Shown one piece after another: positions 3,740 to 58,413 of a stretch of DNA of 64,000 nt. The first letter of the stretch is position 1. Every line of letters starts with the position of its first letter. The notes under the pieces are model-generated. The model had not been told where the DNA came from and made no database searches. It saw only the letters and a program-made list of their open reading frames with translations. The stretch is from Thermoplasmatota archaeon. Lineage in GTDB: Archaea > Thermoplasmatota > E2 > DHVEG-1. The stretch covers positions 5,635 to 69,634 of the forward strand of contig JALOTN010000006.1 in NCBI GenBank assembly GCA_025457885.1, read 5' to 3'. The position numbers and the translations under genes are program-made.

Positions 3740-3954
3740 TGATATTTATAATTTTTGTGCGATTGACCAACGATAAGTAAAACATCGCACTACATATCAT
3801 CGGTTCCCATATTTGGCTCACCCGAAGTAATGGTTCTCAGGTGGACGTGTTTGTTTGTTCTGTGTGTTTTCCAATCATAAGCTCTTGAGGTTTAAATATA
3901 AAACATATTTATAGAAGAACATTGATGTAAAATATGAATGCAGGGGGAAATCAA

Positions 3955-13997: not shown

Positions 13998-14072
13998 TCA
14001 TTTTTCTCTTTCTTTTTATTTTTCCTGCGATATATTTATATAGATTTCCAGAGAATGTGTACTAGTACGAAT

Positions 14073-18019: not shown

Positions 18020-18892
18020 TTATAGCAATCCTGCCTTCTGCAGGACCATCAGATCCTCAGTGCTGAGTTTCTCTCCACGTTTGAACCGTTCGAAGATATC
18101 ATCAGCCTCTTTCTGAGCAGCAGACACGTCAGCTAATTTTTTCTTTTTCTCTTTCTTCTTTTCGCTGCTTGAGATGTTTTTCTCCAGTTCATGAATATTG
18201 TTCACATGGTCGATGAATTCTTTATGAAGTTTATCCGCCTCGATTTTTGTTACAACGATATTCTCCTGAATCTCCGTGGTGCGTTTCACAAGTTTATCCA
18301 GCTGTTTGAGCAACTCCAGCATCTCCTGGTGTTCCTCTTGTGCTTTCTTCGCCATCTTCTCAACAAGCTCATGTTGTTTCTCTGCTTTCTGCCGTGTCAG
18401 TTTCTCTTCCTCGATTGCTTTTTTCAGTTTGGGGTCTTTGTTGAGTTTCTCATCAGCTTCCTTTATCTTCAAGGCGATTCCTTTGATTGTCTCAATCAAT
18501 TTTTTTTCTTTCTGGGCAGACATGGGTTGAGTCATCTGCTCTGTTTCTAGTTTCCTGAGATATTGTTTCAACTCGTTGACGTTCACACCAGAATTCGACG
18601 CTCGTTCCCGTTCAAGCTCTTTGATTTGTTTTTTTAAATCAAGATGATGGGTTAAAAACTCGTTGCGCTGCTCTTTTGCATGCTTCACTCGTTCGTTATA
18701 CTCGTCACGTTTCTTCTTATGTTCACTGATCTGGTTACGCATCTGTCGAACCTTTGCGTTCAGCTCGTCGCGCTCGCGCGCCATTTTCTTGGATTGGTCA
18801 TGGAGCTGGTCCCTGCTTTTTTTCAAATGGTTCGCTTTCTCTTGCAGGTCGTCCTTTTTTCGGACCATGTCTTCTAGTGGTTCATCGTCCAT
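18020..18892 (-). CDS. archaeal coiled-coil protein (COG1340-like)
   Basis: 290 aa with K/E/R-rich heptad repeats. It is a paralogue of 27720..28616. Confidence 0.6.
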   Translation of the reverse strand: MDDEPLEDMVRKKDDLQEKANHLKKSRDQLHDQSKKMARERDELNAKVRQMRNQISEHKKKRDEYNERVKHAKEQRNEFLTHHLDLKKQIKELERERASNSGVNVNELKQYLRKLETEQMTQPMSAQKEKKLIETIKGIALKIKEADEKLNKDPKLKKAIEEEKLTRQKAEKQHELVEKMAKKAQEEHQEMLELLKQLDKLVKRTTEIQENIVVTKIEADKLHKEFIDHVNNIHELEKNISSSEKKKEKKKKLADVSAAQKEADDIFERFKRGEKLSTEDLMVLQKAGLL

Positions 18893-27719: not shown

Positions 27720-28616
27720 TTATCCGGAGAGGGTAATCTTCTTTCCACCTTTGAGTGCTTCTACGGATTGTTCTGCGACTTTCTCGAGTTTTTCGCTGTC
27801 CATGAGTTCCTTGCGTGCTTTGAGGTTCTGATTGCGGAGGATTTCCCGGTTTTCTTGGAAGCGTTGCATCCGTTCTTTTTTCACGGTCACAATCTTGGAT
27901 CGCATCTCGAGGGCTTTCTCATGGTTGCTTTGAGCTTCCTCTCTGACTTCGATGTATTTTTTATGTTTCTTATTGGCTTCACCGATGAGCGTGGCGATCT
28001 CATTGACTATTTTTTTGTATTCCTCATGTTTCTGTTGACTCTCATTGTAGTATTTCTGGACTTTTTCATGTTCTGTGTCTGCTTTTTTGAATAATTCTGT
28101 GATTGCTTTATCGGTGTCGGTAAGATCGACTTCTATGAGTTGTTGTTTTTCCATTTGTTTTTTTACTTCGTTGTATTCTTTTCGTTTTTGTTTGATGCGT
28201 TCGATCAGTTTGTTTTCCTTACGGGTGTCCAGGATGGTTGTCTCCTGTTCGTATTCCATCATTTGGATGTCTGCTTTGATTTCCTCTACTCGGAGCGGTA
28301 GGTTTTTTACGACATCCCCTTTTTTCTTTCGTTTCGCGTCAATAAGCTCTTTTGCCTGCTGTTGATACTGGTTCCTCTTCTCCTTGTGTTCCTTCATCTT
28401 TGCAACGAGTTTTTCCCGTTCTTTTTTGACTTTGTCCATGTCGGTTTTGAGTTCTTTGCGTTTATCATTGAGCATGTCTCGTTCGTCTCTGAACTGTTTT
28501 GCGACCTGGTTGAGCTCGTTACGCTTCTCGATGAGGCTTTGGTATTTCTTCTCTGCATTTTTTAGTTGCTCAAGGTCTTCTTTCTTTGTCGTTTCTTTAT
28601 CGCTCACAAGAGACAC
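27720..28616 (-). CDS. archaeal coiled-coil protein (COG1340-like), paralogue
   Basis: 298 aa with heptad K/E-rich repeats, the same family as 18020..18892. Confidence 0.6.
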   Translation of the reverse strand: MSLVSDKETTKKEDLEQLKNAEKKYQSLIEKRNELNQVAKQFRDERDMLNDKRKELKTDMDKVKKEREKLVAKMKEHKEKRNQYQQQAKELIDAKRKKKGDVVKNLPLRVEEIKADIQMMEYEQETTILDTRKENKLIERIKQKRKEYNEVKKQMEKQQLIEVDLTDTDKAITELFKKADTEHEKVQKYYNESQQKHEEYKKIVNEIATLIGEANKKHKKYIEVREEAQSNHEKALEMRSKIVTVKKERMQRFQENREILRNQNLKARKELMDSEKLEKVAEQSVEALKGGKKITLSG

Positions 28617-28657: not shown

Positions 28658-31486
28658 CTACTGCTCTTTTACGCGTATCCGAACCTGGTTTTTACCTTTT
28701 TCCGCTATCCAGGGGATTTGGATATCAGCGATATTTCCAGCAGGCAGCGTGACTTCAACCTTGTTCTTCTGTTTTCCGTTGAGGTAGAAAAAGACTTTCA
28801 CGTTTCGTGCTGGGATGGTTCCATTGTTCGTCAGAGTAAAGGAGGTGATCACCTTTTCACCAGGGTTGAATGCTGTTGGCCAGTGGGACACGTTTTCGAG
28901 TGCAAGAAGGGTTGTTCCTTCTTTCATCGTGGTGACCAGATCGACGGATTCCTTCTTCTTTTTCCCGATTTTATTTGCAGACAGGGTCACTTGTGTCCAG
29001 TCTTTTGGTGCTGCAGCATCGGTGGGGGTGACGGTGACATGTATCGTTTTTGATGTTTTTCCTTCGAGTTCGACGGTGGTTGGTTCTATTGATAGTCCCC
29101 ATTTATTTTCTGGGCCGGTCTGGTGTGCAGATATTTCATAGGTCTGTGCTTTTTTAAAGGGGTTTTCAATGGTGATTTCGTAGTCGGCGTTTTGGGTTGA
29201 ATCGATTTCTTTAATCCGGTCTGTGCAGATGATTCGAACAGGTTTTGAGGTGAACACGATAGCTAGAATGATGATGAAGAATAAAATGATTACGACCAGG
29301 AGTATTAAAAGAACGTATTTTCCATCCTCAATGAAACCACCGCCGATAACATTGACCGTGATTTCGATGGTGGTGGTGGCCTCTGTGCTGCTGTCAGAGG
29401 TGACGGTGATGGTGATGGTGTCGGTTTTTTCGGTGGTGTTCTTGGGGACTTCGATGAGGACTTTGGCTTCGTTTGGTTTGCTGGTGTCCCCAATGCCGAG
29501 GTTTCTGATGGATTCTTGCGGGATGAGTTTCCAGTCGTTCTTGGATGCTACGGTGATGGTGTAGCTGTCGACATCATCAACTGCGCCCGTGTTTTTGTTT
29601 TTTACGACGAAGTAGAAGAAACGGTTTTCCCCTTTGCTGATGTTAATGGTGGGAGAGTACCCAAGTATTTCAACGTCATAGGTGATTGCTTCTTCGGAGA
29701 TTTCCCCCGTGACTGTTTGACGGGCGATACCGGTGTTTCCTGAAATTACGATTAATAGGTCGATGATGCTGCCGTAGGCTTCTTTGAGGGTATTGGTGGA
29801 ATTGACGTAGACCGGTATGAGTGCATAGCTTCCAGCGGAGACGCTGACTGAATCAGGCATTGAGAATGCCCATGCACCGGTTTTTCCCCGTTCAATGATG
29901 TGTACCTGTAGGGAATCTGCTTTTTTACTACTGATGTTAATGAGGTACTGTATGCTACCACCGGGGATGATTCTTCCTTCGGGGGGTGTGGTGGTGAAGC
30001 TATTTATCTGGATGTTTTGGGTCTCTTCGTATCGGACTCTGAGCAGTGAGGGGGATTGGCTGGATGGAGCTTGCAGATATAAGGGGGTGATAACAGTTTT
30101 AGTCCCATTGCTCAACGCGATCCCAAGGGAGAGTTTCGAACCATAGGTGATTTCTTTGTCCACCCCCGTGAAATTGAAAACAACGGGGATGATTTTCTTT
30201 CGCAGGAATCCTTGAAGGTCTTTCTTCGTGAGTTGTTTCTCGGAAGTAGCGATGGTGGTGTTTGTCTCATCATATAACGTAACGATAACACCGACTTTCA
30301 GAGGTATAAGACAAAGGGTTCTGGTGAAGTACAGCTCTGCGGTGACATCCTTGATTTTTAGGATCTTGTTTCGTTCCAATCCCTGATCGTTCGTCCAGAT
30401 GGTCGGGGTGGTGGTAATCTTGGCTTTTGAGGCATTCCCCTCTTGTTGTATGTCACTCATCAGTTGGTTGGAGCCTAGGTAGTAAATGCGGATGTCATCC
30501 TTGGAGATTTTTCCGGGGATGGAGACAGACGAGGGGTGTTGGGCGGAGTTGTAAATGAGGGAGGTGGACCGCATCGCGTTGATGATTTTTGCAAAATCCT
30601 CTGATGTGATGTTCGTGAGGGTTTCTTTGGCCATGGAGATGAGGTCTTTGATGGTTGTCCCAAGGGTTTGGAGTTTTGCTAGGTTGCTGCGGTTCTCAAG
30701 CCAGTTTCCTCGTTTCTCCCATCGAGCGAGGAACTTGTTTACATCGACGTATTTGGTGATTAGTGTGGGGAGAGTCTTGTTACTGGGGATGATTTCAACG
30801 CTGAAGAGGAGGCTGTCTCCCTGGGTGAGCGTGTTGGAGACATCAGGGATGGTTATCTGTTGTTTGTAGACGCCGCTGAAGAGTTTGGGCGTCAGCAGTT
30901 GGGTGGTGTTCGCTATTTTTTTGGGGATGGGAAAGGCTGATTCCATGTTGATGGTGTAGAGGGATACCGAGACTTGGTCCCGGAATTTCTTTAGGGTGAC
31001 ATCTGAGGAGAAAAACAGGTTGTAGACGATGTCTCCTGAGATGGTCACCGGTTCGGTCCCATTATACGTGTATCCTTCGACGACTCGGAGCGGATGTGGG
31101 AGGAAGAGTTCGAAGCCTTCGAAACCAGGGATTTCACTAAAGTTGAATTCGGGGAATAAAGCGAGGAGCCAGGAGGTGAACCAGACGAGGATTTCGTCGG
31201 TGTTCGGGCTGGGGATCGGGAGTCTTTTAGAGGCATTTACTATGAGAAGATCAGGGGGGTACTTAGAATCCTTTTGACTTGTCGGCGGGTATTCTGACAG
31301 GGTGATAAAGCCATATTCAGAATAGTTTTCATCTTCCATAAGTGAAAGAGCATTGGTGAAATAAAGAGTGGTTCGTCCGGTGGATTCTTCTGCTCTGACG
31401 GATGGATTCATAAATGCTGGAAAGAGGATTCCACTGAATAGGATGTATAGGACACAGAGTACTTGGAGCGCTTTGTGCGCTAGCAT
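28658..31486 (-). CDS. large surface protein with signal peptide, internal TM segment and C-terminal CARDB-like beta-sandwich repeats
   Basis: 942 aa with a signal peptide (MLAHKALQVLCVLYILFSGILFPAFMNPSVRA). A TM helix (VLLILLVVIILFFIIILAIVF) sits about 230 aa from the C-terminus. The tail has CARDB-like patterns (FTLTNNGTIPARNVKVFFYLNG). Confidence 0.55.
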   Translation of the reverse strand: MLAHKALQVLCVLYILFSGILFPAFMNPSVRAEESTGRTTLYFTNALSLMEDENYSEYGFITLSEYPPTSQKDSKYPPDLLIVNASKRLPIPSPNTDEILVWFTSWLLALFPEFNFSEIPGFEGFELFLPHPLRVVEGYTYNGTEPVTISGDIVYNLFFSSDVTLKKFRDQVSVSLYTINMESAFPIPKKIANTTQLLTPKLFSGVYKQQITIPDVSNTLTQGDSLLFSVEIIPSNKTLPTLITKYVDVNKFLARWEKRGNWLENRSNLAKLQTLGTTIKDLISMAKETLTNITSEDFAKIINAMRSTSLIYNSAQHPSSVSIPGKISKDDIRIYYLGSNQLMSDIQQEGNASKAKITTTPTIWTNDQGLERNKILKIKDVTAELYFTRTLCLIPLKVGVIVTLYDETNTTIATSEKQLTKKDLQGFLRKKIIPVVFNFTGVDKEITYGSKLSLGIALSNGTKTVITPLYLQAPSSQSPSLLRVRYEETQNIQINSFTTTPPEGRIIPGGSIQYLINISSKKADSLQVHIIERGKTGAWAFSMPDSVSVSAGSYALIPVYVNSTNTLKEAYGSIIDLLIVISGNTGIARQTVTGEISEEAITYDVEILGYSPTINISKGENRFFYFVVKNKNTGAVDDVDSYTITVASKNDWKLIPQESIRNLGIGDTSKPNEAKVLIEVPKNTTEKTDTITITVTSDSSTEATTTIEITVNVIGGGFIEDGKYVLLILLVVIILFFIIILAIVFTSKPVRIICTDRIKEIDSTQNADYEITIENPFKKAQTYEISAHQTGPENKWGLSIEPTTVELEGKTSKTIHVTVTPTDAAAPKDWTQVTLSANKIGKKKKESVDLVTTMKEGTTLLALENVSHWPTAFNPGEKVITSFTLTNNGTIPARNVKVFFYLNGKQKNKVEVTLPAGNIADIQIPWIAEKGKNQVRIRVKEQ

Positions 31487-39850: not shown

Positions 39851-40034
39851 AATTTTGATGTTTTTTTCAACAAAAATGAAGAATCATTTTTCCGAATACT
39901 ATCTTATTCGTTCCAAAAACGTTTTTACAGGGAAAAAGTAACAGATACTCGATATGTATTTAGAGGAAAAAATATATAGAAAGTTTTATTAGTAATGACA
40001 CCTATGTACAATTGTTGTGTTATGGGGGAATCCT

Positions 40035-42152
40035 ATGCATAAAATAATAAAAATTGGTTTAATTATTGGTATTACTATCGCTTTTTTAACGCCAGTATCG
40101 TTAGTTATCGCTGATGATATTGAACCACCGGTCATCACCTCTATCCTCTATACACCCCATGCTGGTGTACGGACTGACCCTGGTTTCTTCTTATACCAAT
40201 CCTGCATTGTCACTGATAATGTCAGTGTCGCTGATGTGAAAATCAACATGACTGGACCAGCGGGATTTACTCCGATAAACACTACCATGACCAATGCAGG
40301 CGGGGGCAACTACTCCTATCAAGTCGATCCTGTTACCTTTTCAGGAACTTACACCTTTTTCATCTGGGCTATTGACACCTCAAACAACACTGCTCAATCA
40401 AGTCTCTATCATATGCTTGTGTTCGAAAATTATCTTCCTTATATTCATGTCGATGGGAATAACACCGTAGGCCCCTGGAATGGGACTGAGGAATATCCGT
40501 TACAGTTCATCAGTGATGCACTCGCGGTGCTTGCCGAGAACGGGACGATCTTTTTACATGCGGGAGTGTATCAGAACACGTCAATCTCTCTTGAAAAAAA
40601 CATGGTTCTCCTAGGTGAAAACCAACAGACCACTATTCTTGACGGCGCAGGGTTGACTGCGATTGAAATCAACGGGAATTATCTGGTCACCATTTCACAA
40701 CTGACGATTCAAAATGCAGGCATTGGAATCTCATTATTTAATGGAACGAATGCGACGATCTCCTCGTGTATCTTCACAAACAATCTCATCAGTGGCATCG
40801 ATCTTTATGAGTATCATAACCTCCTGGTTACGGATTGTGTTTTTCTTGATAACGCAAAAGCGATTCAGCTGACGAATGCGACGGACAATAAGATTTATCA
40901 TAACAACTTCATCAACAATCTTGTTCATGTTTCATGTCACCTCGATACCTCCTACAACATATGGGATAATGGAGTGACTGGGAACTACTGGGATAATTAT
41001 CGGTTGCTGTATCCCGCAGCCGACATCGACCCGTCAACAGGTACTTGGGACACTGCGTATGTGGTCAACGTCTCAGGGATCAATATCGATAATCACCCCT
41101 GGGTCTACCCTTCAGGATATATTGATACGATTCCACCACAGGTGACGGTTCTTTTCCCGAACGGGGGAGAAACCCTCTATGGAGAAATCACTATTCAATG
41201 GACTGCAACTGATGATCAAACCCTGGATTTGGACGGATCCATCCTCCTTGAATACAGCGCTGATAACGGCGCTAGTTGGAATACTATAGCTGCCCAGTTG
41301 AACAACACCGGGTCATATCTTTGGAACACCAGCCTTGTCTCCGATGGAGGCCTGTATCTTATTGCAGTGACTGCGATTGATGAGTTCTACAACGTTGGCA
41401 CAGATCGATCTGATGCAGTGTTCATCATCAATAACTTTGCCATGGAAACACCTGAGATCACTGGTCCTTTCCAGGGGGGAAATGGGATTCCCTTCAGCTT
41501 TACTGCTGTGGCGTATCATCCTGGTGGTGAACAGATTTACTATATCTGGGACTGGGGGGATGGCAACATTAGTGAATGGTATGGTCCGTACAACTCCAGT
41601 GTGCCGATGACGATAACGAACATCTGGGCAAATGACGGAGTCTATGATGTCCGGGTCAAAGCACGATACTCTGGTGGGAGCGAAAGCAACTGGTCCACGG
41701 TTCATCCCATGGTCGTTGCGGAACAGATTAATTTCTCCAATGTAAAACTAGGGACTATCTACTTTAAATTGTTCAATTTCAACCGTTCATTTATTTTCTC
41801 TGAATTCCTTGCTCGTATTGGGATGGTATTTATCCTTACTACCCATGAAATGGAGTTACAGGGTTATGCAACTGATGTAGTCAAAAAAGTGGACTTTCTT
41901 GCAGAAAACCAATTGAAGATTGAGACGGGGCAATTCACTGATGATGACGGCTCCGATGGGTTCTCCTGTGTGTTGAATGTAACCCGAGGAGCATATATCC
42001 TGAATATCACTGCCTATGATGCCAATGGAACCTTAGTCGATAAATATAGCCTCTTTACTGTCTTCTTCATCCGAATCGGGCGGTATGCCACAGGACTTGG
42101 CGGCGAGGGTCGCTTGCAGCGTCTCCAGGATATCCCCCGATTACGCGATTAA
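40035..42152 (+). CDS. secreted right-handed beta-helix (NosD/pectin-lyase-like) protein with PKD module
   Basis: Signal peptide present, with a GGGGG RBS before the ATG at 40035. Parallel beta-helix repeats (ISSCIFTNNLISGIDL..., CVFLDNAKAIQL, YHNNFINN) and the PKD module YYIWDWGDGNISEWYGPY...DGVYDVRVKARYSGGSESNWS. Confidence 0.6.
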   Translation: MHKIIKIGLIIGITIAFLTPVSLVIADDIEPPVITSILYTPHAGVRTDPGFFLYQSCIVTDNVSVADVKINMTGPAGFTPINTTMTNAGGGNYSYQVDPVTFSGTYTFFIWAIDTSNNTAQSSLYHMLVFENYLPYIHVDGNNTVGPWNGTEEYPLQFISDALAVLAENGTIFLHAGVYQNTSISLEKNMVLLGENQQTTILDGAGLTAIEINGNYLVTISQLTIQNAGIGISLFNGTNATISSCIFTNNLISGIDLYEYHNLLVTDCVFLDNAKAIQLTNATDNKIYHNNFINNLVHVSCHLDTSYNIWDNGVTGNYWDNYRLLYPAADIDPSTGTWDTAYVVNVSGINIDNHPWVYPSGYIDTIPPQVTVLFPNGGETLYGEITIQWTATDDQTLDLDGSILLEYSADNGASWNTIAAQLNNTGSYLWNTSLVSDGGLYLIAVTAIDEFYNVGTDRSDAVFIINNFAMETPEITGPFQGGNGIPFSFTAVAYHPGGEQIYYIWDWGDGNISEWYGPYNSSVPMTITNIWANDGVYDVRVKARYSGGSESNWSTVHPMVVAEQINFSNVKLGTIYFKLFNFNRSFIFSEFLARIGMVFILTTHEMELQGYATDVVKKVDFLAENQLKIETGQFTDDDGSDGFSCVLNVTRGAYILNITAYDANGTLVDKYSLFTVFFIRIGRYATGLGGEGRLQRLQDIPRLRD

Positions 42153-42253
42153 AGAAGAATATTTAAATAGTAAGAAATCGAACATACCTATGAAGGAGAA
42201 ATGAGAATCATCCTCTTGTGGATGAAATGATAAAAAATAATATGAGGGATTAT

Positions 42254-43318
42254 ATGAAGAAAAAATATGTTAATATTCTTGTCTGTGTCGGAATGCTGTT
42301 GGCAACCTTCACTAGTTTCGGTTACCCCACTGCATCGGCACAACCTCCTGCCGTGCCTAGCGAACCAATCCCATCACCAGGGTCAAGCAGTGTCACCGTG
42401 TTTGTGGACCTGGAATGGGCTGGTGGTGAGCAGAACGTATCCTTTGATATCTATTTTGGTGTTGAAAACCCACCACCATTGGTCTTAACTGACGTCCTAG
42501 AGCCGAAGTATGAACCTGAGCGTCTTTTGTTGAACACGACGTATTACTGGCAGATTGTTTCTCATAACAGTCTCTATGAATACACCACGGGACCCATCTG
42601 GAATTTCACCACTGCGGGGAATCAACCGCCATTCAAACCAACGGTCCTTGATGGGCCTCAGAACGCTGGGAAAAATATACCCTTGGAGTTCGTGACCGTC
42701 GCCCCTGATCCGGAGGGAGACAAAGTCATGTATCAATGGGACTGGGGGGACGGCAACGTCAGTGACTGGTACGGTCCGTATGAATTCGGTGAGCAAACTA
42801 CGACAACCCATCAATGGGTTGAAAATGGAACCTATGAGGTAAAAGTACGGGCACGAGATGATTCCGGCAAACAGAGCGGCTGGTCAAAGGCTTATAATGT
42901 GACTATCCAACCTCAAGTCGAGTTATCAAACTGTAAACCAGGGTACCTTTACTTTGTGTTCTTAACCTTTGACAAAACCTATGGATATATTTACTCACTG
43001 GATCTCCTAGGTATATCCCTGATCATAAGCACCGGTGGGATGCGGGTCAATGCCATTGGCTCTGATTCTGTTCACTCCGTGGTTTTCCAGATGCAGAATA
43101 AATTTTTAGAGGACCAACGATGGAATGCGACCTCCATCAATGAAACCGGAACTGTGTATGAGGGGTACTTCTACCTCAACGACGGTCTGTATGAGACCTC
43201 CGCGTATGCCTACGACAGCGCGGGTCGCTTGATTGACCGAGCATCCCGTCAGTACGTCATCTACTATGAGTGGAAGTTCATCTTGCTTAAACAACTCCTG
43301 GGTCTTGGTGCAACCTAA
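42254..43318 (+). CDS. secreted PKD-module protein (paralogous C-terminal architecture to upstream gene)
   Basis: Signal peptide present, with a GAGGGA RBS before the ATG at 42254. PKD module MYQWDWGDGNVSDWYGPY...GTYEVKVRARDDSGKQSGWS. Its C-terminal LYFxFLxF domain resembles that of 40035..42152. Confidence 0.55.
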   Translation: MKKKYVNILVCVGMLLATFTSFGYPTASAQPPAVPSEPIPSPGSSSVTVFVDLEWAGGEQNVSFDIYFGVENPPPLVLTDVLEPKYEPERLLLNTTYYWQIVSHNSLYEYTTGPIWNFTTAGNQPPFKPTVLDGPQNAGKNIPLEFVTVAPDPEGDKVMYQWDWGDGNVSDWYGPYEFGEQTTTTHQWVENGTYEVKVRARDDSGKQSGWSKAYNVTIQPQVELSNCKPGYLYFVFLTFDKTYGYIYSLDLLGISLIISTGGMRVNAIGSDSVHSVVFQMQNKFLEDQRWNATSINETGTVYEGYFYLNDGLYETSAYAYDSAGRLIDRASRQYVIYYEWKFILLKQLLGLGAT

Positions 43319-50183: not shown

Positions 50184-51539
50184 ATGAAACATAGAGGAAA
50201 TAAAACGTATAGGTTCTACAAGGCTTTAGTTATCGTTGTCACATTTGGTCTCTTACTCATTCCAGGTTATGCTCTGGCACATATCTCTGATATAATGAGC
50301 GATCCTACACCACATCACCCTGCATACATACAAAGTAGAGACGACCTAAAAACCGTCGTGATACCTCCCCGTAGTTCTCCATATCATCTGAATCCTCTTT
50401 CCACAATGAATCTTGATATTGCTGAATTGATTCAGCAGGTGGATGAATCTCTTATCCTTGGATATTTGGAGAATCTAACAAGTTTTGGGCCACGGCTCTC
50501 CGGGACAATTGCGTGTAATTTGTCTGCCCAATATCTTTATGAGACATTCCAGGGGATGGGTTTAGAGGTCCGCTATCATAATTACACTGATTATACGGTC
50601 TCTGGAAGGAATGTTGAAGCGACATTACCCGGGACCGGATCTGATAATATCTTTATCATCTGTGGGCATTATGATTCAGTTGCCTCTAGTCCTGGTGCGG
50701 ATGATGACGGCTCTGGTGTCGCAGCAGTCCTTGCTGCAGCAGAAGTGATGAGGAACTATGAGTTTTTCCACACCATACGATTTGTCGCATTTTCCGGGGA
50801 GGAACAAGGATTGGTTGGAAGCTCTCATTACGCGGAGGATGCTTATGCAGCGAATGAAACCATAATCGCAGTCCTCAATGCAGATATGATTGGGTTTGCT
50901 CCTTTACCATCTGATGGCACCAAAGGGAAAATATTTGAGAATGAGGCTTCCGAGTGGATCGTGCAGTACAGCCAAGCGGTAAGCCAAAACTACTGGGATT
51001 ACATTGGTATTGAACTGACGCCTCAGGGTGAGACCTGGGGGAGTGACCATTATTCGTTCTGGCAGTATGGGTATGATGCAGTGTTTTATCATGAACATAA
51101 TTTCAATGATTATTATCACTCTGCAAATGACACAATAAATCATATGAATCTTTCCTACTCTTCTCGATTCACCAGGCTTATTTTAGCAACCCTCGCAGAG
51201 ATGGCGTTGCAACCACGCCCGGTGCTTGAAATCTCCAGCATCAGTGGAGGTCTTGGGATCACCACACAAGTTCGCAACGTCGGTGAGCTCAACGCTAGTG
51301 ATGTGAATATTTCCATTTCTTTGACTGGGGGATTGCTGGGATTGTACGATATGTCTTCTATCACGGGAGTTGATTTGCTCGCACCATTAGAATCAACACA
51401 GCATAAAGCGATTCCATTCCGGATAGGTACTATCGAAATTGAGGTAGCCGCATGGGCATCCAACGCAGATCAAGTGACAAAACATGCGACAGGGTTCCTG
51501 CTAGGTCCTCTTGTGCTGAGGCTTGTTGTCACCCCATAA
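50184..51539 (+). CDS. secreted M28-family Zn aminopeptidase
   Basis: Signal peptide present. M28 metal ligands are in HYDSV, DDGSG, SGEEQGLVGS and YHSANDT. Confidence 0.7.
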   Translation: MKHRGNKTYRFYKALVIVVTFGLLLIPGYALAHISDIMSDPTPHHPAYIQSRDDLKTVVIPPRSSPYHLNPLSTMNLDIAELIQQVDESLILGYLENLTSFGPRLSGTIACNLSAQYLYETFQGMGLEVRYHNYTDYTVSGRNVEATLPGTGSDNIFIICGHYDSVASSPGADDDGSGVAAVLAAAEVMRNYEFFHTIRFVAFSGEEQGLVGSSHYAEDAYAANETIIAVLNADMIGFAPLPSDGTKGKIFENEASEWIVQYSQAVSQNYWDYIGIELTPQGETWGSDHYSFWQYGYDAVFYHEHNFNDYYHSANDTINHMNLSYSSRFTRLILATLAEMALQPRPVLEISSISGGLGITTQVRNVGELNASDVNISISLTGGLLGLYDMSSITGVDLLAPLESTQHKAIPFRIGTIEIEVAAWASNADQVTKHATGFLLGPLVLRLVVTP

Positions 51540-51655: not shown

Positions 51656-53179
51656 ATGGCAATTATCATTACTGGATCTGGTTTTACTATCGAAAAACTC
51701 ATTGAGGTCGCACGACATCATGAGGAGATACAACTCCATCCGGATGCTCTTGCCCGTATCAAGGCATGTCGGTTGATGCTTGAGAATAAAATCAAAGCCC
51801 ATGAGATTATGTACGGAGTCAACACGGGGATTGGGGAGTTCTCTGAAGTCGTACTGAATGATTCCCAGATGAAGGAGTTCCAGAAATATCTTATTTACAA
51901 CCATGCAGCAGGCATTGGAGATCCCGCCCCGCTGGAGTATGTCCGTGGCGCGATGGTCGCCCGGGTAAATGTCCATGCGCATGGGAACTCAGGGTGTCGC
52001 CCGGAGATCACTCAGACGTTGATTGAGATGTTAAATAAAGGTGTCACCCCGTTTGTCTGTCAGAAAGGCAGTGTTGGTGCTTGTGGAGATTTGGCTCCGA
52101 TGGCACAGATCGCATTACTTATGATGGGGGAGGGAAAAGCATACTATAAAGGAGAATTGCTGCAGGGTCGGGATGCGATGAAGAAAGCAGGGATACCCAT
52201 CCCTGGGTTGCAGGCACGGGATGGTCTGGCGATCATCAACGGATCAAATCTGTTGACTGCGATGAGTGGTTTATTTTTATATGATGCGAATAATTGGTTG
52301 AAGCAAGCAGAAATAGCAGCGGCTATGTCCCTTGAAGCCTTAAAGGCGAACATGAAACCGTACAACGTGAAGATCCATCAGGTGCGCGGGTTCCCTGGGG
52401 CGGTTCGAAGTGCTCTAGCGATTCAGAAATGCATCAAAGGCGGAGACCTAATTGAGGGTAAAATGAAATGTAAAGTCCAGGATGCCTATTCGATGCGGTC
52501 GACTCCCCAGGTGATTGGAGCGGCTCATGATGCTCTTGCGTATGCGCGGTCTCAGGTGGAAATCGAGCTGAATGGTGTGGGGGATAACCCGATTTTCTTC
52601 CCTGATGAGAACCTTCAGTTATCCGGGGCGAACTTCCAGGGATCACCCGTATCACTTCCAATGGATATGGCGGGTACGGCTATTACCATGGTATCTGTGT
52701 TATCAGAGCGTCGGATGAATCGTCTGAACAACCCTGCGTTGAATGTCGGGTTACCCGCGTTTCTAACTAAAGGAGCGGGGATGTTCTCTGGTTTGATGTT
52801 GAGTCAGTACACCGCGGATGCGTTGATTGTCGAACAGCGAATCTTATCAGCTCCTGCGTCGATCCAGTCGATTCCTGCTGCCGCGGACCAGGAGGATTTT
52901 GTCTCAATGGGGATGACAACAGCGATTAAGAATTTCCAGATTCTTGATAATGCCTATGGGATTCTTGGGATCGAGTTTATGGCTGCCGCGCAAGCCCTGG
53001 ATTTCCGTGATTATCAATGCGGGAAAGGGGTGACAAAGGCAAAAGAAATCATCCGAAAACATGTTAAGTTCCTCGATGAGGATCGACCGTTATACCCGGA
53101 TCATACTACAATGAAGGAGCTGGTGAAATCCGGTGAGATTCTCCATGAAGTCGAGACCGCTGTAGGAAGTCTGGAGTAG
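51656..53179 (+). CDS. hutH: histidine ammonia-lyase (MIO-enzyme family) with Ala-Cys-Gly in the MIO-forming position
   Basis: 507 aa aligning over its length with HAL. The MIO loop reads GSVGACGDLAPMAQ (codons GCT TGT GGA at 52079..52087, residues 142-144) in place of the canonical GSVGASGDLAPL. Confidence 0.8.
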   Translation: MAIIITGSGFTIEKLIEVARHHEEIQLHPDALARIKACRLMLENKIKAHEIMYGVNTGIGEFSEVVLNDSQMKEFQKYLIYNHAAGIGDPAPLEYVRGAMVARVNVHAHGNSGCRPEITQTLIEMLNKGVTPFVCQKGSVGACGDLAPMAQIALLMMGEGKAYYKGELLQGRDAMKKAGIPIPGLQARDGLAIINGSNLLTAMSGLFLYDANNWLKQAEIAAAMSLEALKANMKPYNVKIHQVRGFPGAVRSALAIQKCIKGGDLIEGKMKCKVQDAYSMRSTPQVIGAAHDALAYARSQVEIELNGVGDNPIFFPDENLQLSGANFQGSPVSLPMDMAGTAITMVSVLSERRMNRLNNPALNVGLPAFLTKGAGMFSGLMLSQYTADALIVEQRILSAPASIQSIPAAADQEDFVSMGMTTAIKNFQILDNAYGILGIEFMAAAQALDFRDYQCGKGVTKAKEIIRKHVKFLDEDRPLYPDHTTMKELVKSGEILHEVETAVGSLE

Positions 53180-53206
53180 AGTCACAGGTTTCTTTTTCAA
53201 TTTTTT

Positions 53207-54877
53207 TTATTTTTTGATCATCGGGATTTGAATATGTGATTGTTTCACTTGTTGAATCGCTTCTTTGTATCCAGCGTCTGCATGTCGAGCGACCCCCATA
53301 CCTGGGTCGGTGGTGAAGACCCGTCTGATGCGTTCATCGGTTTCTGTGGTGCCGTCACAAACAACAACCATCCCTGCATGTGTGGATAATCCAATGCCGA
53401 CACCCCCGCCATTGTGGATTTGTACGCTATCTGCTCCTGCGGCGCAGTTGAGAAGTGCGTTGAGTAACGGCCAGTCTGCGATTGCGTCACTGCCGTCTCT
53501 CATTGATTCGGTTTCCCGGTATGGTGAGGCAACACTGCCGCTATCGAGATGATCCCTGGTGATGGCGATGGGGCCGATTTTTTTCTCCCGGACCATTTTA
53601 TTGATGACCAGGGCGAACTCTGCTCGCTCCCCGTATCCAAGCCAGCAGACACGCGCGGGAAGTCCTTCCCAGGGGAGGTGCTTCTCGGCAAGGGTGATCC
53701 AGTTTGTTAACACCATGTCTTTTGGAAAGAGTCTTCTGGCTGCTTCATCGGTTTTGAGAATATCCTTTGGGTCACCGGTGAGTGCGAGCCAGCGGAAGGG
53801 TCCTCGGCCGACACAGAACATCGGTCTGATGTATGCGGGGACAAACCCGGGGTAGTCAAACGCGTTTTTCAAGCCTGCTTTCATGGCTTGGCCTCGGAGG
53901 TTGTTCCCGTAATCGAACACTATTGAACCTTTCTTTTGAAAATCAAGGAGTGCAGTACAATGTTGTTTGATGCTTTGCATGGACTGTTTGATGTATAAGG
54001 TGGGGTTCTTTTTTCGTAGTTCATCTGCTTGTCGGAGTGATTCACCGTAGAATTTTGCAGGGACATATCCGTTGAGCTCATCATGTGCTGAGGTCTGATC
54101 GGTGACGATATCCGGGTTGAATCCTTCTTTCACTAACCAGGGCATGATGGTTGCGCAATTTCCCAATAAGCCAATAGAGAGTGGTTTTTTTTCTTTTTTC
54201 GCTTGAGCTGCGAGTGTTACTGCTTCATTGATATCTTTTATTTTTTTGTCACAGAATCCTGCGTTGATTCGTCGGTCGATACGTTTTTCATCACATTCAA
54301 CCGCGAGGCACACGCCTTGGTTCATGGTGACGGCGAGCGGTTGCGCACCACCCATACCACCAAGTCCACCGGTGAGGACGATCTTTCCTTTCAGGGTGCT
54401 TTTGAAATGTTTTTTTGCACAAGCAGCAAACGTCTCATAAGTCCCTTGGATGATTCCTTGGGTGCCGATGTAACACCAGGACCCTGCAGTCATCTGCCCA
54501 TACATGGTTAAGCCTTGGTGTTCGAGGTTTCGAAAGTTCTCCCAGGTGCTCCAGTGTGGGACGAGGTTTGAGTTCGCCATGAGGACCCGTGGTGCGGTCG
54601 TCCAGGTTTTGAAGACCGCGACTGGTTTTCCTGATTGAATGATGAGTGTTTCATCATCGTTGAGTTTTTTTAGAGTGGTGACGATTGCGTCGTAGCATTT
54701 CCAGTTGCGTGCTGCTTTACCGGTGCCACCGTAGATGATGAGGTCCTCTGGTTTTTCTGCGTTCTCCAGATTGTTCTCCAGCATCCGGAGGATTGCTTCT
54801 TGTTTCCAGTTTTTACAGCGCAGCTTGTTTCCCTTTTGAACCTTCACGTGTCGTGTCATGGTTTCGAATTTGCACAA
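53207..54877 (-). CDS. hutU: urocanate hydratase
   Basis: 556 aa with an NAD-binding [11 protein letters not shown] and N-terminal KGNKLxxKxWxxEAxLRML. It is convergent with hutH. Confidence 0.8.
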
Positions 54878-55033: not shown

Positions 55034-55249
55034 TTAAATGAAGGAAATACTGACGACGTTGCTGCCCCGAAGGATAATTCTCCCCAGTCGGCGTTTGGTT
55101 TCATCCTTGGATTCTTCGACTTCATCCAGCACGAGGTTCATGTATTCATCGTATCCTAACAGCTTGCCTTCAATATGTCTGCCATCTTTTAAGAGAAGGA
55201 GTAATTTCTGGTTCACTGCTTTTTCCAGGACATCTAATGGTAAGGACAT
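55034..55249 (-). CDS. Sm-like archaeal protein (SmAP/LSm)
   Basis: 71 aa from the ATG at 55249, with Sm1/Sm2 motifs (LLLLKDGRHIEGKLLGYDEYMNLVL ... RLGRIILRGSNVVSI). Confidence 0.75.
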   Translation of the reverse strand: MSLPLDVLEKAVNQKLLLLLKDGRHIEGKLLGYDEYMNLVLDEVEESKDETKRRLGRIILRGSNVVSISFI

Positions 55250-55319: not shown

Positions 55320-56744
55320 CTAGGGGTACCCACCAATACGTAAACTAGGGTCTCCAAACAGTGCCCATGATTCCATGACTTTCGCATCAATCCATGAGTC
55401 ACCAAGCCCTGGGGAATCCCATTTCACGGGGTACGTCTGTGCGTACCAGCTGACTGCAGCAGACCAGGTGTCTCCTAAAATAGTGGCTTGGTTCTGTCCA
55501 TAGGAATGGAAAAACGCGCACTCCAGTTCATTGATGCCCCCTTTAAAGGAGGTCTTATCCTCTTTGGTGAACCCCAAGGCGGTGCACCCAATGCTGCAGA
55601 TCGAACCACCGGTTGGTTCCCGGAGGATACGTTCACTCCAACACTCCGGGACGTACTCCTGTTTCCATCGTGTGTCTTTGTTAAACAGTCGTCTCAGACA
55701 GACATCGAACTGACTATTGTGACAGCCGCTGACCACACAGACCGGAAGTCGGTCCTTATTGCGGAACTTCCACATATCATTACTGTTCGGACCCTGGACA
55801 AAGCCTGTCCCATTGGCTTTGTTGTTCCCCCACTGCTTAGGGCTTCCATGGCCGACAAAGTACACAAACCCGTACCCGTTATGAAACTCCCTGATGACGT
55901 CTTTCTTGTCAGTAAACGTCTCATCCGATGTGTACAGCCGAGTAGGGGTAAACCCCGTCATGTTCTCAATTGCACGATCCCCGTAATATTCTCCCTCATA
56001 CCCGGTCCAGTTCGGATTACCTGACACAGGGTACGTGTCTCCAGCGACTACCAAAATCCGTGAAAACCAGGATTGGCCAAACGCGGTTGTCTCATAATTA
56101 ATGATCTTCTGAACGATGATTCTGACCTCCCGGGGATTGCGACATGGCAGACGACCCACGGCGACATCCGGGGCTAGGTCAATATCGACATCCTGCGCAT
56201 TCTCCCCCATATACCATTCCCCATACACCCCGTCACCATCACTGTCCCAGCTGGAAAACCCCCCGTTCCGATCATAGATATCCGCGAAATACAGGTCACT
56301 GAGATACCCAACATCCCAATCATCCACCATGTTGACGTACCGCACTGGGCAATACCAGGATGGAAGGAACTGGCTGCTTCTCCCCCCCACCAAGAGAACA
56401 TATTCAACGCCCCAGATCTCAACAGCCGCCTTGATGAAATATTTCAGCTTCTCCGCCTCATCACGACCCTCCCAGTACATCTGATGATACACCTCGGAGA
56501 GCGTGACCAGTTTTGTGCTCATACCATGGGCGTTCTTATGCGCAACCAGTGGTTGTAGCTCGTTTTTAAAAACCGTCGGCGTCAGAATCAACAGCGAGTA
56601 CACCACGTTTGACTCCTGCGAAGTCTCTGTAAGCTCAATTCCTCTTGGTTCCCCCTGTGCTTCAACAAAGGGACTCAGACCAGAACAGAGAAAAACCACG
56701 ATAATACCATAGACTTGTAATCGATGTCTTCCTTTCATTTTCAT
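55320..56744 (-). CDS. secreted peptidase C25 (gingipain)-like cysteine peptidase homologue
   Basis: 474 aa with a signal peptide. C25-type N-terminal subdomain (YVLLVGG, DLYFADIYD, VGRLPC...YET), a His in FVYFVGHGSP, and a Cys in LPVCVVSGCHNSQFD. It is a tandem paralogue of the next gene. Confidence 0.6.
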   Translation of the reverse strand: MKMKGRHRLQVYGIIVVFLCSGLSPFVEAQGEPRGIELTETSQESNVVYSLLILTPTVFKNELQPLVAHKNAHGMSTKLVTLSEVYHQMYWEGRDEAEKLKYFIKAAVEIWGVEYVLLVGGRSSQFLPSWYCPVRYVNMVDDWDVGYLSDLYFADIYDRNGGFSSWDSDGDGVYGEWYMGENAQDVDIDLAPDVAVGRLPCRNPREVRIIVQKIINYETTAFGQSWFSRILVVAGDTYPVSGNPNWTGYEGEYYGDRAIENMTGFTPTRLYTSDETFTDKKDVIREFHNGYGFVYFVGHGSPKQWGNNKANGTGFVQGPNSNDMWKFRNKDRLPVCVVSGCHNSQFDVCLRRLFNKDTRWKQEYVPECWSERILREPTGGSICSIGCTALGFTKEDKTSFKGGINELECAFFHSYGQNQATILGDTWSAAVSWYAQTYPVKWDSPGLGDSWIDAKVMESWALFGDPSLRIGGYP

Positions 56745-56790
56745 ACCAACCCCTTCATCAATATACTATTGACTCCATACATATGTATTC

Positions 56791-58302
56791 CTAAATGACG
56801 GATCCCCCTGCTTGCGGATACCCACCAATCTTTAAACTAGGGTCCCCAAACAACGCCCATTGCTGCACGGTTTTTGCATCAATCGCACTATCCCAAGCAG
56901 CAGGTGTGTCCCAATCAATCGGATACCGATTCAGATAATTTGTAATCGCATTGCCCCAGGCGTTCCCAAGAATGGTTGTCCCATTCACCCCATACTCGTA
57001 AAAGAACGTTGGCTCAAGAAAATCACCAGCACCACTGAAGGACTGCTTATCCTCCTTTGACATCCCCAGTCCCGTACACCCAATCGTCGCAATCGACCCA
57101 CCATTGTTCATCCGCGTCAGCTTCCACCCCCAACACTCACGAATCCAGGTGTAATGCCAAAACAACCCTGAGGGTGACGTACGACTCGAGAAATACCGCA
57201 ACCCTTGTTCTTTGATTCCCCACAAGATATTCTTCGGTGTGACATCGAACTCGTTGTTATGACACCCTCCGACGATACACACCGGCAACATCCGTTTGTT
57301 CCGAAGAAGATCCATCGACACCGTGTTTAACCCATTAATCCAGGTCTGCGGTTTGTCCGTCGGATGAGTGCTCCAGGAAAACGCGTTCGCATGCCCCTCA
57401 AACATCAAAAAACCACACCCGCCATTGATCGCGCGAATCACATCCCGCGGCCCGGTAAAAGACTCATCAGACGTCCAGAGTTTCACTGGTTCAAACCCAG
57501 ACATATTATCAATAGCATCCTGCGTGTTTTCCTCCCCTTCATTCCCTGTCCAATTTGGGTTCAATGACTCAGGGTAGGTGTCACCAGCGACAACCACAAA
57601 CCGATGGAACCACTCCTGACCAAACGCAGTGGTCTCATAGGTAATGATCTTCCGTACCATCACCCGGACCTCAGCGTCATTCACACAAGCAAGACGCCCG
57701 ACATACACATCCGGGTACAAATCAATATCCCGGTCCCGCGCAGTCGCACCATACCATTCACCATACACCCCGTTGTTACCTGAATCCCAGCTAGAAAAAT
57801 TATGGTTCCTATCATAGAGATCCGCATAATACAACTCAGAAATAAAACACGGCTCATCCCAGCCGCTGTTATTATCCGCATTATACACATACCGAATGGG
57901 GATGGTTTCGAAATCCCCCACCAACAGGACATACGTGATCCCCCAGGTCTCCTTTGCCGTCTTAATGAAATACTTAATTTTCTCCTGCGGATCCCGCCCA
58001 TACCAGAACATCTGATGGTACACCTCGTTTAGAGTCACCAGGTTGGTCTTCACCCCCACCCGATTTTTATGGGTCACCAACGGCTGCAACTCATTGACAA
58101 ATTTTCTTGGAGCGATGATCAACAAATCATACACCACGGGAGTTGAAATTCCAGGGAAAGACCCCTTCACATACCCCCCAACATTCGTAAAGAGAGATGC
58201 ATTCTGTGCCATAAAAGCAGGACACCATAACAATCCAAAAAATACGACAGCGAGAACAAAAAGCTGTTTGATGAACACCGATTGAGATACCTTCATACGC
58301 AA
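56791..58302 (-). CDS. secreted peptidase C25 (gingipain)-like cysteine peptidase homologue, tandem paralogue
   Basis: 503 aa with a signal peptide, about 55-60% identical by eye to 55320..56744 (YVLLVGD, ELYYADLYD, VGRLAC...YETTAFGQEWF). The His lies in FLMFEGHANA and the Cys in LPVCIVGGCHNNEFD. Confidence 0.6.
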   Translation of the reverse strand: MRMKVSQSVFIKQLFVLAVVFFGLLWCPAFMAQNASLFTNVGGYVKGSFPGISTPVVYDLLIIAPRKFVNELQPLVTHKNRVGVKTNLVTLNEVYHQMFWYGRDPQEKIKYFIKTAKETWGITYVLLVGDFETIPIRYVYNADNNSGWDEPCFISELYYADLYDRNHNFSSWDSGNNGVYGEWYGATARDRDIDLYPDVYVGRLACVNDAEVRVMVRKIITYETTAFGQEWFHRFVVVAGDTYPESLNPNWTGNEGEENTQDAIDNMSGFEPVKLWTSDESFTGPRDVIRAINGGCGFLMFEGHANAFSWSTHPTDKPQTWINGLNTVSMDLLRNKRMLPVCIVGGCHNNEFDVTPKNILWGIKEQGLRYFSSRTSPSGLFWHYTWIRECWGWKLTRMNNGGSIATIGCTGLGMSKEDKQSFSGAGDFLEPTFFYEYGVNGTTILGNAWGNAITNYLNRYPIDWDTPAAWDSAIDAKTVQQWALFGDPSLKIGGYPQAGGSVI

Positions 58303-58413
58303 ACCCCTATCAATAAATATACGCGAGGCTTAATAAATCTTTCATCCTTTGTATATCCCCGAAATACACCCAAATAAAGATATTAATACAGCGTGTACCA
58401 TGGGGGGCGTCAC

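Follow-up and report, generated by a model that had tools for sequence, protein, structure and literature searches.

The gingipains RgpB and Kgp of Porphyromonas gingivalis (MEROPS C25, PF01364; PDB 1cvr, 4ief, 4rbm, 4tkx) are exported via the T9SS and have the catalytic dyads His211/Cys244 (RgpB) and His444/Cys477 (Kgp), together with an acidic S1 residue, Asp163 in RgpB and Asp516 in Kgp, that gives Arg/Lys specificity. Their catalytic domain is accompanied by an inhibitory prodomain of ∼200 residues and by Ig-like, haemagglutinin/adhesin and T9SS C-terminal domains. A C25 core is also present in PorU (PDB 6za2), the C-terminal signal peptidase/sortase of the T9SS, which is a protein of ∼1100 residues with extra domains. 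In archaea, gingipain-like C25 peptidases were described in MBG-D and Bathyarchaeota (Lloyd et al. 2013, as cited in PMC9585477 and PMC6752024). The C25 genes of Thermoprofundales metagenome-assembled genomes (MAGs) are multi-copy, predicted to be extracellular and highly transcribed (Zhou et al. 2018, PMC6461988), while in White Oak River sediments C25 makes up 41–45% of the signal-peptide-bearing peptidase genes and Arg-specific endopeptidase substrates are rapidly hydrolysed (PMC6752024). Multiple exported and expressed C25 genes are on record for this lineage (PMC6461988, PMC6752024, PMC9585477), and such peptidases are regarded as a major means of attack on buried protein by the abundant uncultured archaea of sediments, which bears on carbon burial (PMC6752024, PMC6461988). 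A search of the literature yielded no biochemically characterised archaeal C25 enzyme.

The window analysed here is a stretch of 64,000 nucleotides from a Thermoplasmatota archaeon. It contains two adjacent C25-type genes, termed P2 and P1 in the order of their reading, with the following features.

55320–56744, minus strand: P1, 474 residues from an ATG start; C25-family cysteine peptidase comprising a signal peptide and the catalytic domain alone
56791–58302, minus strand: P2, 503 residues from a TTG start; C25-family cysteine peptidase, paralogue of P1
56745–56790, minus strand: P2–P1 spacer of 46 nt, its sequence read directly
56658–56744, minus strand: P1 signal-peptide-like N-terminus (residues 1–29; basic MKMKGRHR, hydrophobic core, putative cleavage site VEA↓QG)
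58204–58302, minus strand: P2 signal-peptide-like N-terminus from hydropathy (residues 1–33; putative cleavage site FMA↓QN)
55848–55850, minus strand: codon of P1 catalytic His299 (VGHGS)
55722–55724, minus strand: codon of P1 catalytic Cys341 (SGCHN)
55989–55991, minus strand: codon of P1 Glu252, candidate S1 specificity residue
57391–57393, minus strand: codon of P2 catalytic His304 (EGHAN)
57262–57264, minus strand: codon of P2 catalytic Cys347 (GGCHN)

The strand, lengths, positions and 46-nt spacing of the two ORFs are exactly as the initial annotation had them. An ATG at 58296, two codons past the P2 TTG, gives a protein of 501 residues and is the start used by gene callers on an identical public (Logan) contig; the exact P1 protein is also present on JGI and Logan contigs. 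The spacer includes an AT-rich stretch and a Shine–Dalgarno-like AGGGGTT motif ahead of the P1 ATG, a similar motif precedes the P2 ATG, and inspection of the 46 nt revealed no oligo-T run. The proteins are 51% identical by BLASTP (E 1e-161) and 53% by MAFFT, slightly below the 55–60% claimed initially.

P1 and P2 match the PF01364 (Peptidase_C25) profile over positions 2–373 of 374, with 203.5 bits for P1 (E 7.8e-60, residues 52–469 of 474) and 179.2 bits for P2 (E 1.9e-52, residues 61–491 of 503) compared with a gathering cut-off of 23 bits. RgpB is matched by P1 in a PDB profile search (E 2e-17), and close homologues of both proteins are named ‘C25 family cysteine peptidase’ by NCBI. By sequence, P1 and P2 belong to peptidase family C25 (clan CD), and the full-length profile coverage suggests that they adopt the two-subdomain (A and B) α/β catalytic fold. 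The motifs from which the C25-type call was originally made (YVLLVG, DLY[FY]AD[IL]YD, VGRLxC, YETTAFGQxWF, VGHG/EGHA and SGCHN/GGCHN) were all found, and the call holds for both proteins, with the aligned catalytic residues intact. His299 and Cys341 of P1 align with His211 and Cys244 of RgpB, and Cys341 also with Cys477 of Kgp, single-sequence and profile alignments being in agreement, and His304 and Cys347 of P2 share their alignment columns. The dyad is kept in 103 of 103 relatives, and Asp236 and Glu252 are each kept in 102 of them. Two alignments place Glu252 opposite RgpB Asp163, so that the S1 position would be acidic in both proteins, as Glu rather than Asp, a placement that rests on sequence alignment at ∼15–20% identity to the gingipains. 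Insertions add ∼90 residues to P1 and P2 relative to the latter, among them a DxDxDG-like loop (WDSDGDG) and, past the catalytic Cys, a segment rich in Cys. We consider it probable that P1 and P2 are catalytically competent, Sec-exported C25 cysteine endopeptidases of a Thermoprofundales/MBG-D-like Thermoplasmatota archaeon.

In P1 the C25 domain starts at residue ∼50 and in P2 at residue ∼60, which is ∼20–30 residues past the predicted signal peptide, and the GDPSL[RK]I motif, which aligns with the terminal strand of the gingipain catalytic domain (RgpB 341–346), lies 4 (P1) or 10 (P2) residues from the C-terminus. Since the catalytic domain starts so soon after the predicted cleavage site and ends so near the terminus, both proteins lack the ∼200-residue inhibitory prodomain of gingipains (by Pfam, alignments and hydropathy), the Ig-like and haemagglutinin/adhesin domains and the T9SS C-terminal sorting domain, and Pfam detects no other domain in either. 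Whereas gingipains leave the cell through the T9SS, P1 and P2 would use the archaeal Sec route. To our knowledge the T9SS is a Bacteroidota system and would not be expected in archaea. The pre-proteins would traverse the membrane unfolded and then fold extracellularly, which would make an inhibitory prodomain unnecessary. Its absence was nonetheless counted against the proposed reading, which does not account for the control of latency.

Signal peptides had been claimed for both proteins, and both N-termini are signal-peptide-like as judged solely from hydropathy and residue pattern: they are basic, then hydrophobic, with a small-x-small pattern, and no further transmembrane segment follows. 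In P1 the sole transmembrane-like segment spans residues 9–29, and cytoplasmic control proteins have none. Export and signal-peptide cleavage are accordingly predictions, and the same single hydrophobic segment of ∼20 residues would suit an uncleaved signal anchor equally well by hydropathy and pattern, in which case P1 and P2 would be active ectoenzymes tethered to the cell rather than freely diffusing. Neither protein has a C-terminal anchor or binding domain as an alternative means of retention, and on general reasoning hydrolysis close to the cell would pay better energetically where diffusion in the sediment is limiting. However, the conserved small-x-small sequence after the hydrophobic core (VEA↓Q in P1, FMA↓Q in P2) resembles signal peptidase I sites and the family consensus N-terminus shows a P...A pattern. 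The C25 proteins of Thermoprofundales are also mostly predicted to be extracellular (PMC6461988), and we regard tethering as unlikely.

A role in maturing the cell surface, in which P1 and P2 would trim S-layer and other surface proteins or attach them, acting as processing proteases or as PorU-like transpeptidases, is a more doubtful alternative, and we hold it to be quite improbable. It derives from the T9SS sortases PorU and PorU2 being the only NCBIfam models matched (E 7.5e-20 and 8.9e-14 for P1), from the recovery of PorU in the PDB profile search (E 7e-7), from the wealth in the window of exported surface-type proteins with PKD, CARDB, β-helix and PPC domains, and from the location of the pair in a conserved housekeeping neighbourhood beside SRP54. 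The PorU matches (NF033707) are partial, covering profile positions 363–647 of 1095, and their scores of 70.2 and 47.1 bits fall far below the 420-bit equivalog cut-off and reflect the shared C25 core only. Moreover, RgpB is the better PDB match, P1 and P2 are catalytic domains alone without the T9SS C-terminal domain, and C25 genes are so numerous and abundant in these archaea and in sediments that bulk proteolysis is a better fit than a dedicated processing role (PMC6461988, PMC6752024).

The P1 and P2 proteins form sister clades that each span many MAGs. As the deep orthologue clades of the two copies are separate, a recent tandem duplication is ruled out; the initial description of tandem duplicated genes is right in that the paralogues are adjacent, although the copy is not recent, as the separate orthologue clades and the conserved arrangement show. 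The duplication is ancient and has been maintained under purifying selection. The clades differ in residues near the active site: the catalytic His lies in V-G-H-G-S in the P1 clade and in [E/D]-G-H-A-N in the P2 clade, and the candidate S1 Glu lies in E-Y-Y-G and E-[E/Q]-N-T, respectively. These clade-specific residues beside the His and the Glu suggest diverged subsite preferences rather than redundancy, and by analogy with Rgp and Kgp one enzyme might, for example, be Arg-specific and the other Lys-specific. That one paralogue is instead a non-catalytic partner of the other, whether a pseudo-peptidase or a subunit that regulates or inhibits it, is highly improbable: the P2 clade has His-Ala in place of the near-universal clan-CD His-Gly (26 of 27) with extra insertions past the Cys, and the tight pairing is conserved, but His, Cys, Asp236 and Glu252 are kept in all 27 P2-clade proteins, and an obligate complex is unlikely given that the orthologues lie ∼1 Mb apart in the complete chromosome CP070724.1 and that several genomes have only one of the two at the syntenic site. 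A pseudo-enzyme was ruled out because the dyad is invariant.

The gene order MOFRL-SRP54-HAD-P2-P1-LSM-hutU-hutH-M28 is conserved, and its part from HAD to M28 is found again across numerous Thermoplasmatota MAGs, among them Thermoprofundales (MBG-D) bins already in the literature. On the P1 side of the pair the window contains the following genes.

50184–51539, plus strand: M28-family peptidase (PF04389, E 7.5e-40), with a signal-like N-terminus by hydropathy; syntenic with the C25 pair
51656–53179, plus strand: hutH, histidine catabolism (Pfam Lyase_aromatic on the identical contig)
53207–54877, minus strand: hutU, histidine catabolism (Pfam Urocanase on the identical contig)
55034–55249, minus strand: LSM (Sm-like) protein of 71 residues (PF01423 on the identical contig), directly downstream of P1 in a conserved position

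The M28 peptidase noted initially is thus present. The hutH and hutU genes lie beside the C25 pair in more than 10 loci, although the synteny of hutH, hutU and M28 with the pair may be mere conserved gene order, as SRP54 and LSM are equally syntenic and functionally unrelated. A plasmid or mobile origin of the locus is ruled out by this synteny across MAGs and by the housekeeping neighbours, which include PheRS, SRP54, deoxyhypusine synthase, TIM, GlnA and tRNA-Ile. Relatives of P1 and P2 are almost all from Thermoplasmatota MAGs, and the closest loci are in Thermoplasmata/Thermoplasmatota MAGs that include M11B2D, M9B1D and SG8-52-3. M11B2D carries a P1 orthologue (71%) and a P2 orthologue (80%) in the identical arrangement, and M9B1D and M11B2D are listed as mangrove Thermoprofundales (MBG-D) MAGs (PMC6461988). 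The likeness to protein-degrading sediment archaea that the initial annotation drew is therefore borne out by the nearest loci.

As secreted endopeptidases, P1 and P2 would cut detrital proteins with the His299/Cys341 and His304/Cys347 dyads, probably after basic residues in view of the essentially invariant Glu at the position of the Arg-binding Asp163 of RgpB. Exported exopeptidases, for example the syntenic M28 enzyme, could then trim the peptides released, and the amino acids would be fermented; hutH and hutU lie adjacent. Activity, specificity at the P1 substrate position and a nutritional role are predictions. P1 and P2 share family, lineage, predicted extracellular location and multi-copy occurrence with the published C25 peptidases of MBG-D/Thermoprofundales and Bathyarchaeota. 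The density of clan-CD peptidases that had been called unusual is so for archaea in general, but for this lineage it is the norm and has been published before (PMC6461988, PMC6752024). The secreted C25 pair was correctly called, yet with C25 genes documented and homologues already named by NCBI it is an ordinary and known hallmark of a protein-degrading lineage, and the locus leaves the picture of buried-protein degradation fundamentally unchanged. What is mildly new is confined to the conserved P1/P2 paralogue pair and two unannotated clan-CD families. In the text consulted, the published archaeal C25 papers treat the genes as a class, with no account of the P2–P1 pair or its synteny, nor of the active-site signatures that set the two clades apart. 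As a vertically conserved, minimal, catalytic-domain-only pair, P1 and P2 are convenient targets for the first biochemistry of archaeal gingipain homologues.

Two further secreted proteins in the window were considered as clan-CD homologues.

21173–24892, plus strand: secreted multidomain protein of 1239 residues with a signal peptide, two PPC domains, an unassigned middle region, a CWB2-like repeat and a C-terminal gingipain-like domain (His1052, Cys1132)
14055–15113, plus strand: secreted caspase-fold (clan CD-like) protein of 352 residues with a His194/Cys271 dyad, outside the curated families

The smaller ORF had been reported as 347 residues starting at 14073; the ORF exists, but it starts at 14055 and 14073 is an internal Met. 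Four clan-CD homologues were originally counted, and this stands by sequence for P1 and P2, whereas for the other two it follows from predicted folds and dyads and not from sequence searches. A C25-family HMM recovered only P1 and P2 among 518 ORFs of the window, giving E 8.6 for the 1239-residue protein, which has no match to PF01364 even at E≤10. BLASTP of the two proteins against P1 gave nothing significant, and searches of both and of their sub-fragments against Pfam (E≤10) and NCBIfam (E≤1) gave no clan-CD match. Profiles of the two families likewise found no clan-CD match among PDB sequences, that of the 1239-residue family matching only the CWB2 repeat. When the C25 alignment was compared by hhalign with the 1239-residue family, the GHG and GDPSL motifs were paired at a non-significant probability of 4.6%, and the value of 7.1% for the 352-residue family is meaningless. 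The 352-residue protein falls outside the curated C11, C13, C14, C25, C50 and CHAT families in Pfam, NCBIfam and PDB sequences.

The AlphaFold2 model of the C-terminus of the 1239-residue protein has a caspase-type α/β fold with gingipains as the nearest structures, and His1052 and Cys1132 follow strands 347–351 and 427–431 (model numbering), respectively. All of 28 homologues keep GHGTGGSG (His1052), and Cys1132 is conserved in at least 90% of them. The model of the 352-residue protein also has a caspase-type fold, and all of 33 homologues retain His194 and Cys271. As modelled, both proteins have in common with CHAT, separase (C50), metacaspase/caspase (C14), legumain (C13) and clostripain (C11) the caspase/haemoglobinase fold and a His...Cys dyad placed after consecutive β-strands. 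The 1239-residue protein could come from a gingipain-like family that has diverged strongly and carries PPC and CWB2-like modules, and the 352-residue protein could be the founder of a minimal secreted caspase-fold family. It is possible, though less probable than not, that the two represent peptidase families outside the curated libraries and that P1 and P2 form a two-enzyme system of diverged specificity. If both additional proteins are active, Pfam- and MEROPS-based surveys under-count the extracellular clan-CD peptidases of sediment Thermoplasmatota. With at least two further clan-CD families in the same genomes missed by profile-based annotation, counts of peptidases in these archaea probably fall short of the true number. 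The 352-residue family comprises at least 963 cluster representatives and often occurs in fusions with PKD, Ig, NosD or PQQ-propeller modules, and its remote relatives likewise lack Pfam coverage of the caspase-fold region, with the His194/Cys271 dyad present in 112 of 117 remote representatives.

P1 and P2, two adjacent genes on the minus strand of the window, encode members of peptidase family C25:

55320-56744, minus strand: P1, 474 aa, ATG start
56791-58302, minus strand: P2, 503 aa from a TTG start

The positions reported for both open reading frames in the initial annotation are correct, and all of the motifs quoted there are found in the two proteins. On an identical public contig, gene callers start P2 at an ATG two codons downstream, which yields 501 aa. 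P2 and P1 are separated by 46 nt, and the spacer sequence contains no oligo-T run. The proteins are paralogues, as proposed, with an identity of 51% across 479 columns by BLASTP (E 1e-161) and 53% by MAFFT, slightly short of the visual estimate of 55-60%. A similar Shine-Dalgarno-like motif, AGGGGTT, is located 5-7 nt 5' of the ATG of both genes, and AT-rich TATA-like stretches are present ~20-40 nt upstream of each (56745-56790 and 58297-58330, minus strand).

Pfam PF01364 (Peptidase_C25) covers nearly the whole length of both proteins, which score far above its gathering score of 23 bits, with 203.5 bits for P1 (E 7.8e-60, residues 52-469) and 179.2 bits for P2 (E 1.9e-52, residues 61-491). 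A single-sequence search of PDB sequences with P1 retrieved the Porphyromonas gingivalis gingipains RgpB (E 3.5e-9) and Kgp (6.5e-4), together with the T9SS sortase PorU (5.8e-3), and a 27-sequence family profile improved the RgpB and PorU matches to 2e-17 and 7e-7, respectively.

The N-termini of P1 and P2 consist of a basic stretch, one hydrophobic segment of ~20 residues and then a small-x-small motif, with putative cleavage at VEA|QG in P1 and FMA|QN in P2. Hydropathy analysis revealed no further transmembrane-like segment in either protein and nothing comparable to the N-terminal segment in the cytoplasmic neighbours hutU and SRP54. These N-termini are compatible with a Sec signal peptide. 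The single hydrophobic segment could instead be an uncleaved signal anchor, and cell-tethered ectoenzymes are the likeliest of three alternatives to the exported enzymes proposed below, even with the small-x-small motif in place. The C25 domain begins ~20-30 residues beyond the predicted cleavage site, and P1 and P2 end 4 and 10 residues, respectively, past the strand GDPSL[RK]I, the counterpart of RgpB 341-346 in the alignment. Hence, unlike the gingipains, P1 and P2 lack a prodomain, an Ig-like domain, adhesin domains and a T9SS C-terminal domain. Participation in PorU-like surface-protein processing ranks second among the alternatives; the only NCBIfam matches of P1 and P2 are to PorU sortase models, at 70 and 47 bits against a cut-off of 420, and the architecture is neither gingipain-type nor PorU-type.

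Counting along the PDB alignments, P1 His299 occupies the position of RgpB His211, and P1 Cys341 that of RgpB Cys244 and Kgp Cys477. P1 Glu252 aligns with RgpB Asp163, the floor residue of the S1 pocket to which the substrate Arg binds, and Asp236/Thr237 align adjacent to RgpB Glu152 and Kgp Asp388. In a set of 103 C25 domains of near-full length, taken from the window and from 82 related loci, every member keeps His299 and Cys341, and 102 keep Asp236 and Glu252. Given the strong PF01364 matches and this conservation, the C25 assignment made in the initial annotation clearly holds. The least likely alternative, that one of the pair is a pseudo-enzyme, has to be set against this invariant dyad, which is unsubstituted in both proteins.

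An identical copy of P1, with the same neighbours, is found on a JGI metagenome contig and in a Logan assembly. A word-indexed search returned 2802 homologues (E≤1e-5), of which those with names are from Thermoplasmata, Thermoplasmatota or 'Euryarchaeota' MAGs; several close homologues are already named 'C25 family cysteine peptidase' by NCBI. Scanning a single genome for each species gave 387 relatives, and the 80 loci kept are nearly all from Thermoplasmata, Thermoplasmatales or Thermoplasmatota MAGs. These include SG8-52-3 as well as M9B1D and M11B2D, the latter two listed as mangrove Thermoprofundales (MBG-D) MAGs (PMC6461988). Two close homologues (43-55% identity) are filed under bacteria, L060 (QNBN01000119.1) and protein P0116, labelled as a 'Spirochaetes bacterium' MAG (Guaymas) and a 'Petrotogales bacterium' MAG; they could be mis-binned or the product of lateral transfer.

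Many of the related loci share the gene order MOFRL-SRP54-HAD-P2-P1-LSM-hutU-hutH-M28. In the window hutH and hutU (51656-54877) are syntenic with the peptidase genes, and neither hutI nor hutG was seen in the subset of ORFs scanned with Pfam. Identity to P2 is 60-87% among its orthologues, which share only ~48% with P1; orthologues of P1 share 53-81% with P1 and ~50% with P2. In a neighbour-joining tree the P1 clade (36 sequences) is sister to the P2 clade (27 sequences), and both fall inside a broader radiation of C25 paralogues from Thermoplasmatota. Judged from these sequences, the duplication is ancient and the two copies were each retained, because the clades are sisters and each copy has its own orthologues. 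The clades differ near the catalytic residues, with V-G-H-G-S-P and E-Y-Y-G in P1 and [E/D]-G-H-A-N-P and E-[E/Q]-N-T in P2, the pattern expected if subsite specificity had diverged. In some genomes only one C25 gene stands between HAD and LSM. On the complete Thermoplasmatales chromosome CP070724.1 the orthologues are ~1 Mb apart, the P1-like gene beside LSM-hutU-hutH (L017) and the P2-like gene beside HAD (L040), which indicates that a rearrangement broke the conserved pair exactly between P2 and P1. Linkage of the pair is thus not obligatory.

In the best-supported reading, which we put forward as a proposal, P1 and P2 would leave the cell through the Sec pathway and acquire their fold on the outside, so that no prodomain would be needed, and would then cleave extracellular protein as His/Cys endopeptidases. 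Cleavage would probably occur after basic residues, because of Glu252. The released peptides could feed exported exopeptidases, of which the syntenic M28 enzyme is one example, and amino-acid fermentation; hutH and hutU are adjacent. Such a nutritional role is consistent with published work. In Thermoprofundales MAGs, C25 genes are multi-copy, predicted to be extracellular and highly transcribed (PMC6461988), and gingipain genes are also recorded for a set of 146 Thermoprofundales genomes (PMC9585477). C25 accounts for 41-45% of signal-peptide-bearing peptidase genes in White Oak River sediment, and Arg-type endopeptidase substrates rank there with those hydrolysed most rapidly (PMC6752024).

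P1 and P2 therefore belong to a type of C25 protein already known from MBG-D/Thermoprofundales, and their annotation is correct and largely expected. In the literature searched, we found no description of the conserved pair with its clade-specific active-site neighbours, of its stable synteny, or of two further clan-CD families in these genomes that neither Pfam nor NCBIfam detects, and no biochemically characterised archaeal C25 enzyme was apparent. The density of clan-CD genes, which had been called unusual for archaea, is so for archaea at large and is characteristic of this lineage.

The two further families are represented by a 352-aa and a 1239-aa protein:

14055-15113, plus strand: 352-aa protein
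21173-24892, plus strand: 1239-aa protein

At E≤10 Pfam matches the 1239-aa protein only in two PPC domains and the 352-aa protein nowhere, and neither protein matches NCBIfam. BLASTP against P1 was insignificant, the C25 HMM found only P1 and P2 among the window ORFs, and hhalign against C25 gave probabilities of 4.6% (1239-aa family) and 7.1% (352-aa family). Each belongs to a well-populated Thermoplasmata 'hypothetical protein' family. GHGTGGSG (His1052) is invariant and Cys1132 at least 90% conserved in the 1239-aa family, and T-H-A-G (His194) and T-C (Cys271) are invariant in the 352-aa family. In AlphaFold2 models of both, His and Cys follow consecutive β-strands, as in clan CD, and at the level of these models we regard the clan-CD fold as settled. 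The count of four caspase-fold peptidase homologues is consequently supported by predicted fold and dyad; as sequence-family membership it does not extend to the 1239-aa and 352-aa proteins. An exhaustive profile search with the 352-aa family gave 963 cluster representatives (E≤1e-3). Its remote relatives are extracellular-type proteins of large size that carry PKD, Ig, NosD β-helix, PQQ-propeller or Lcl_C modules and have no Pfam annotation over the matched region, and His and Cys are kept in 112 of the 117 that span both positions. The family lacks a curated model and may represent a peptidase family not yet described.

Signal-like N-termini were seen by hydropathy on P1, P2, the 352-aa and 1239-aa proteins and the M28 peptidase, and the window is generally rich in secreted proteins. 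Further exported surface-type proteins (3934-5238, 28658-31486, 40017-42152 and 42218-43318) carry PKD, CARDB, β-helix/NosD and Ig domains, every one with a signal-like N-terminus. Two DUF7121 paralogues lie ~9 kb apart (18020-18892 and 27720-28616, minus strand). Two adjoining paralogous large polytopic membrane proteins of 887 and 844 aa (8044-13238, plus strand; 4-nt overlap) have GIFT/ABC_transp_aux/DUF4350-type domains and ~9-11 transmembrane-like segments, and the GC skew of this region is strongly negative (−0.26 to −0.29).
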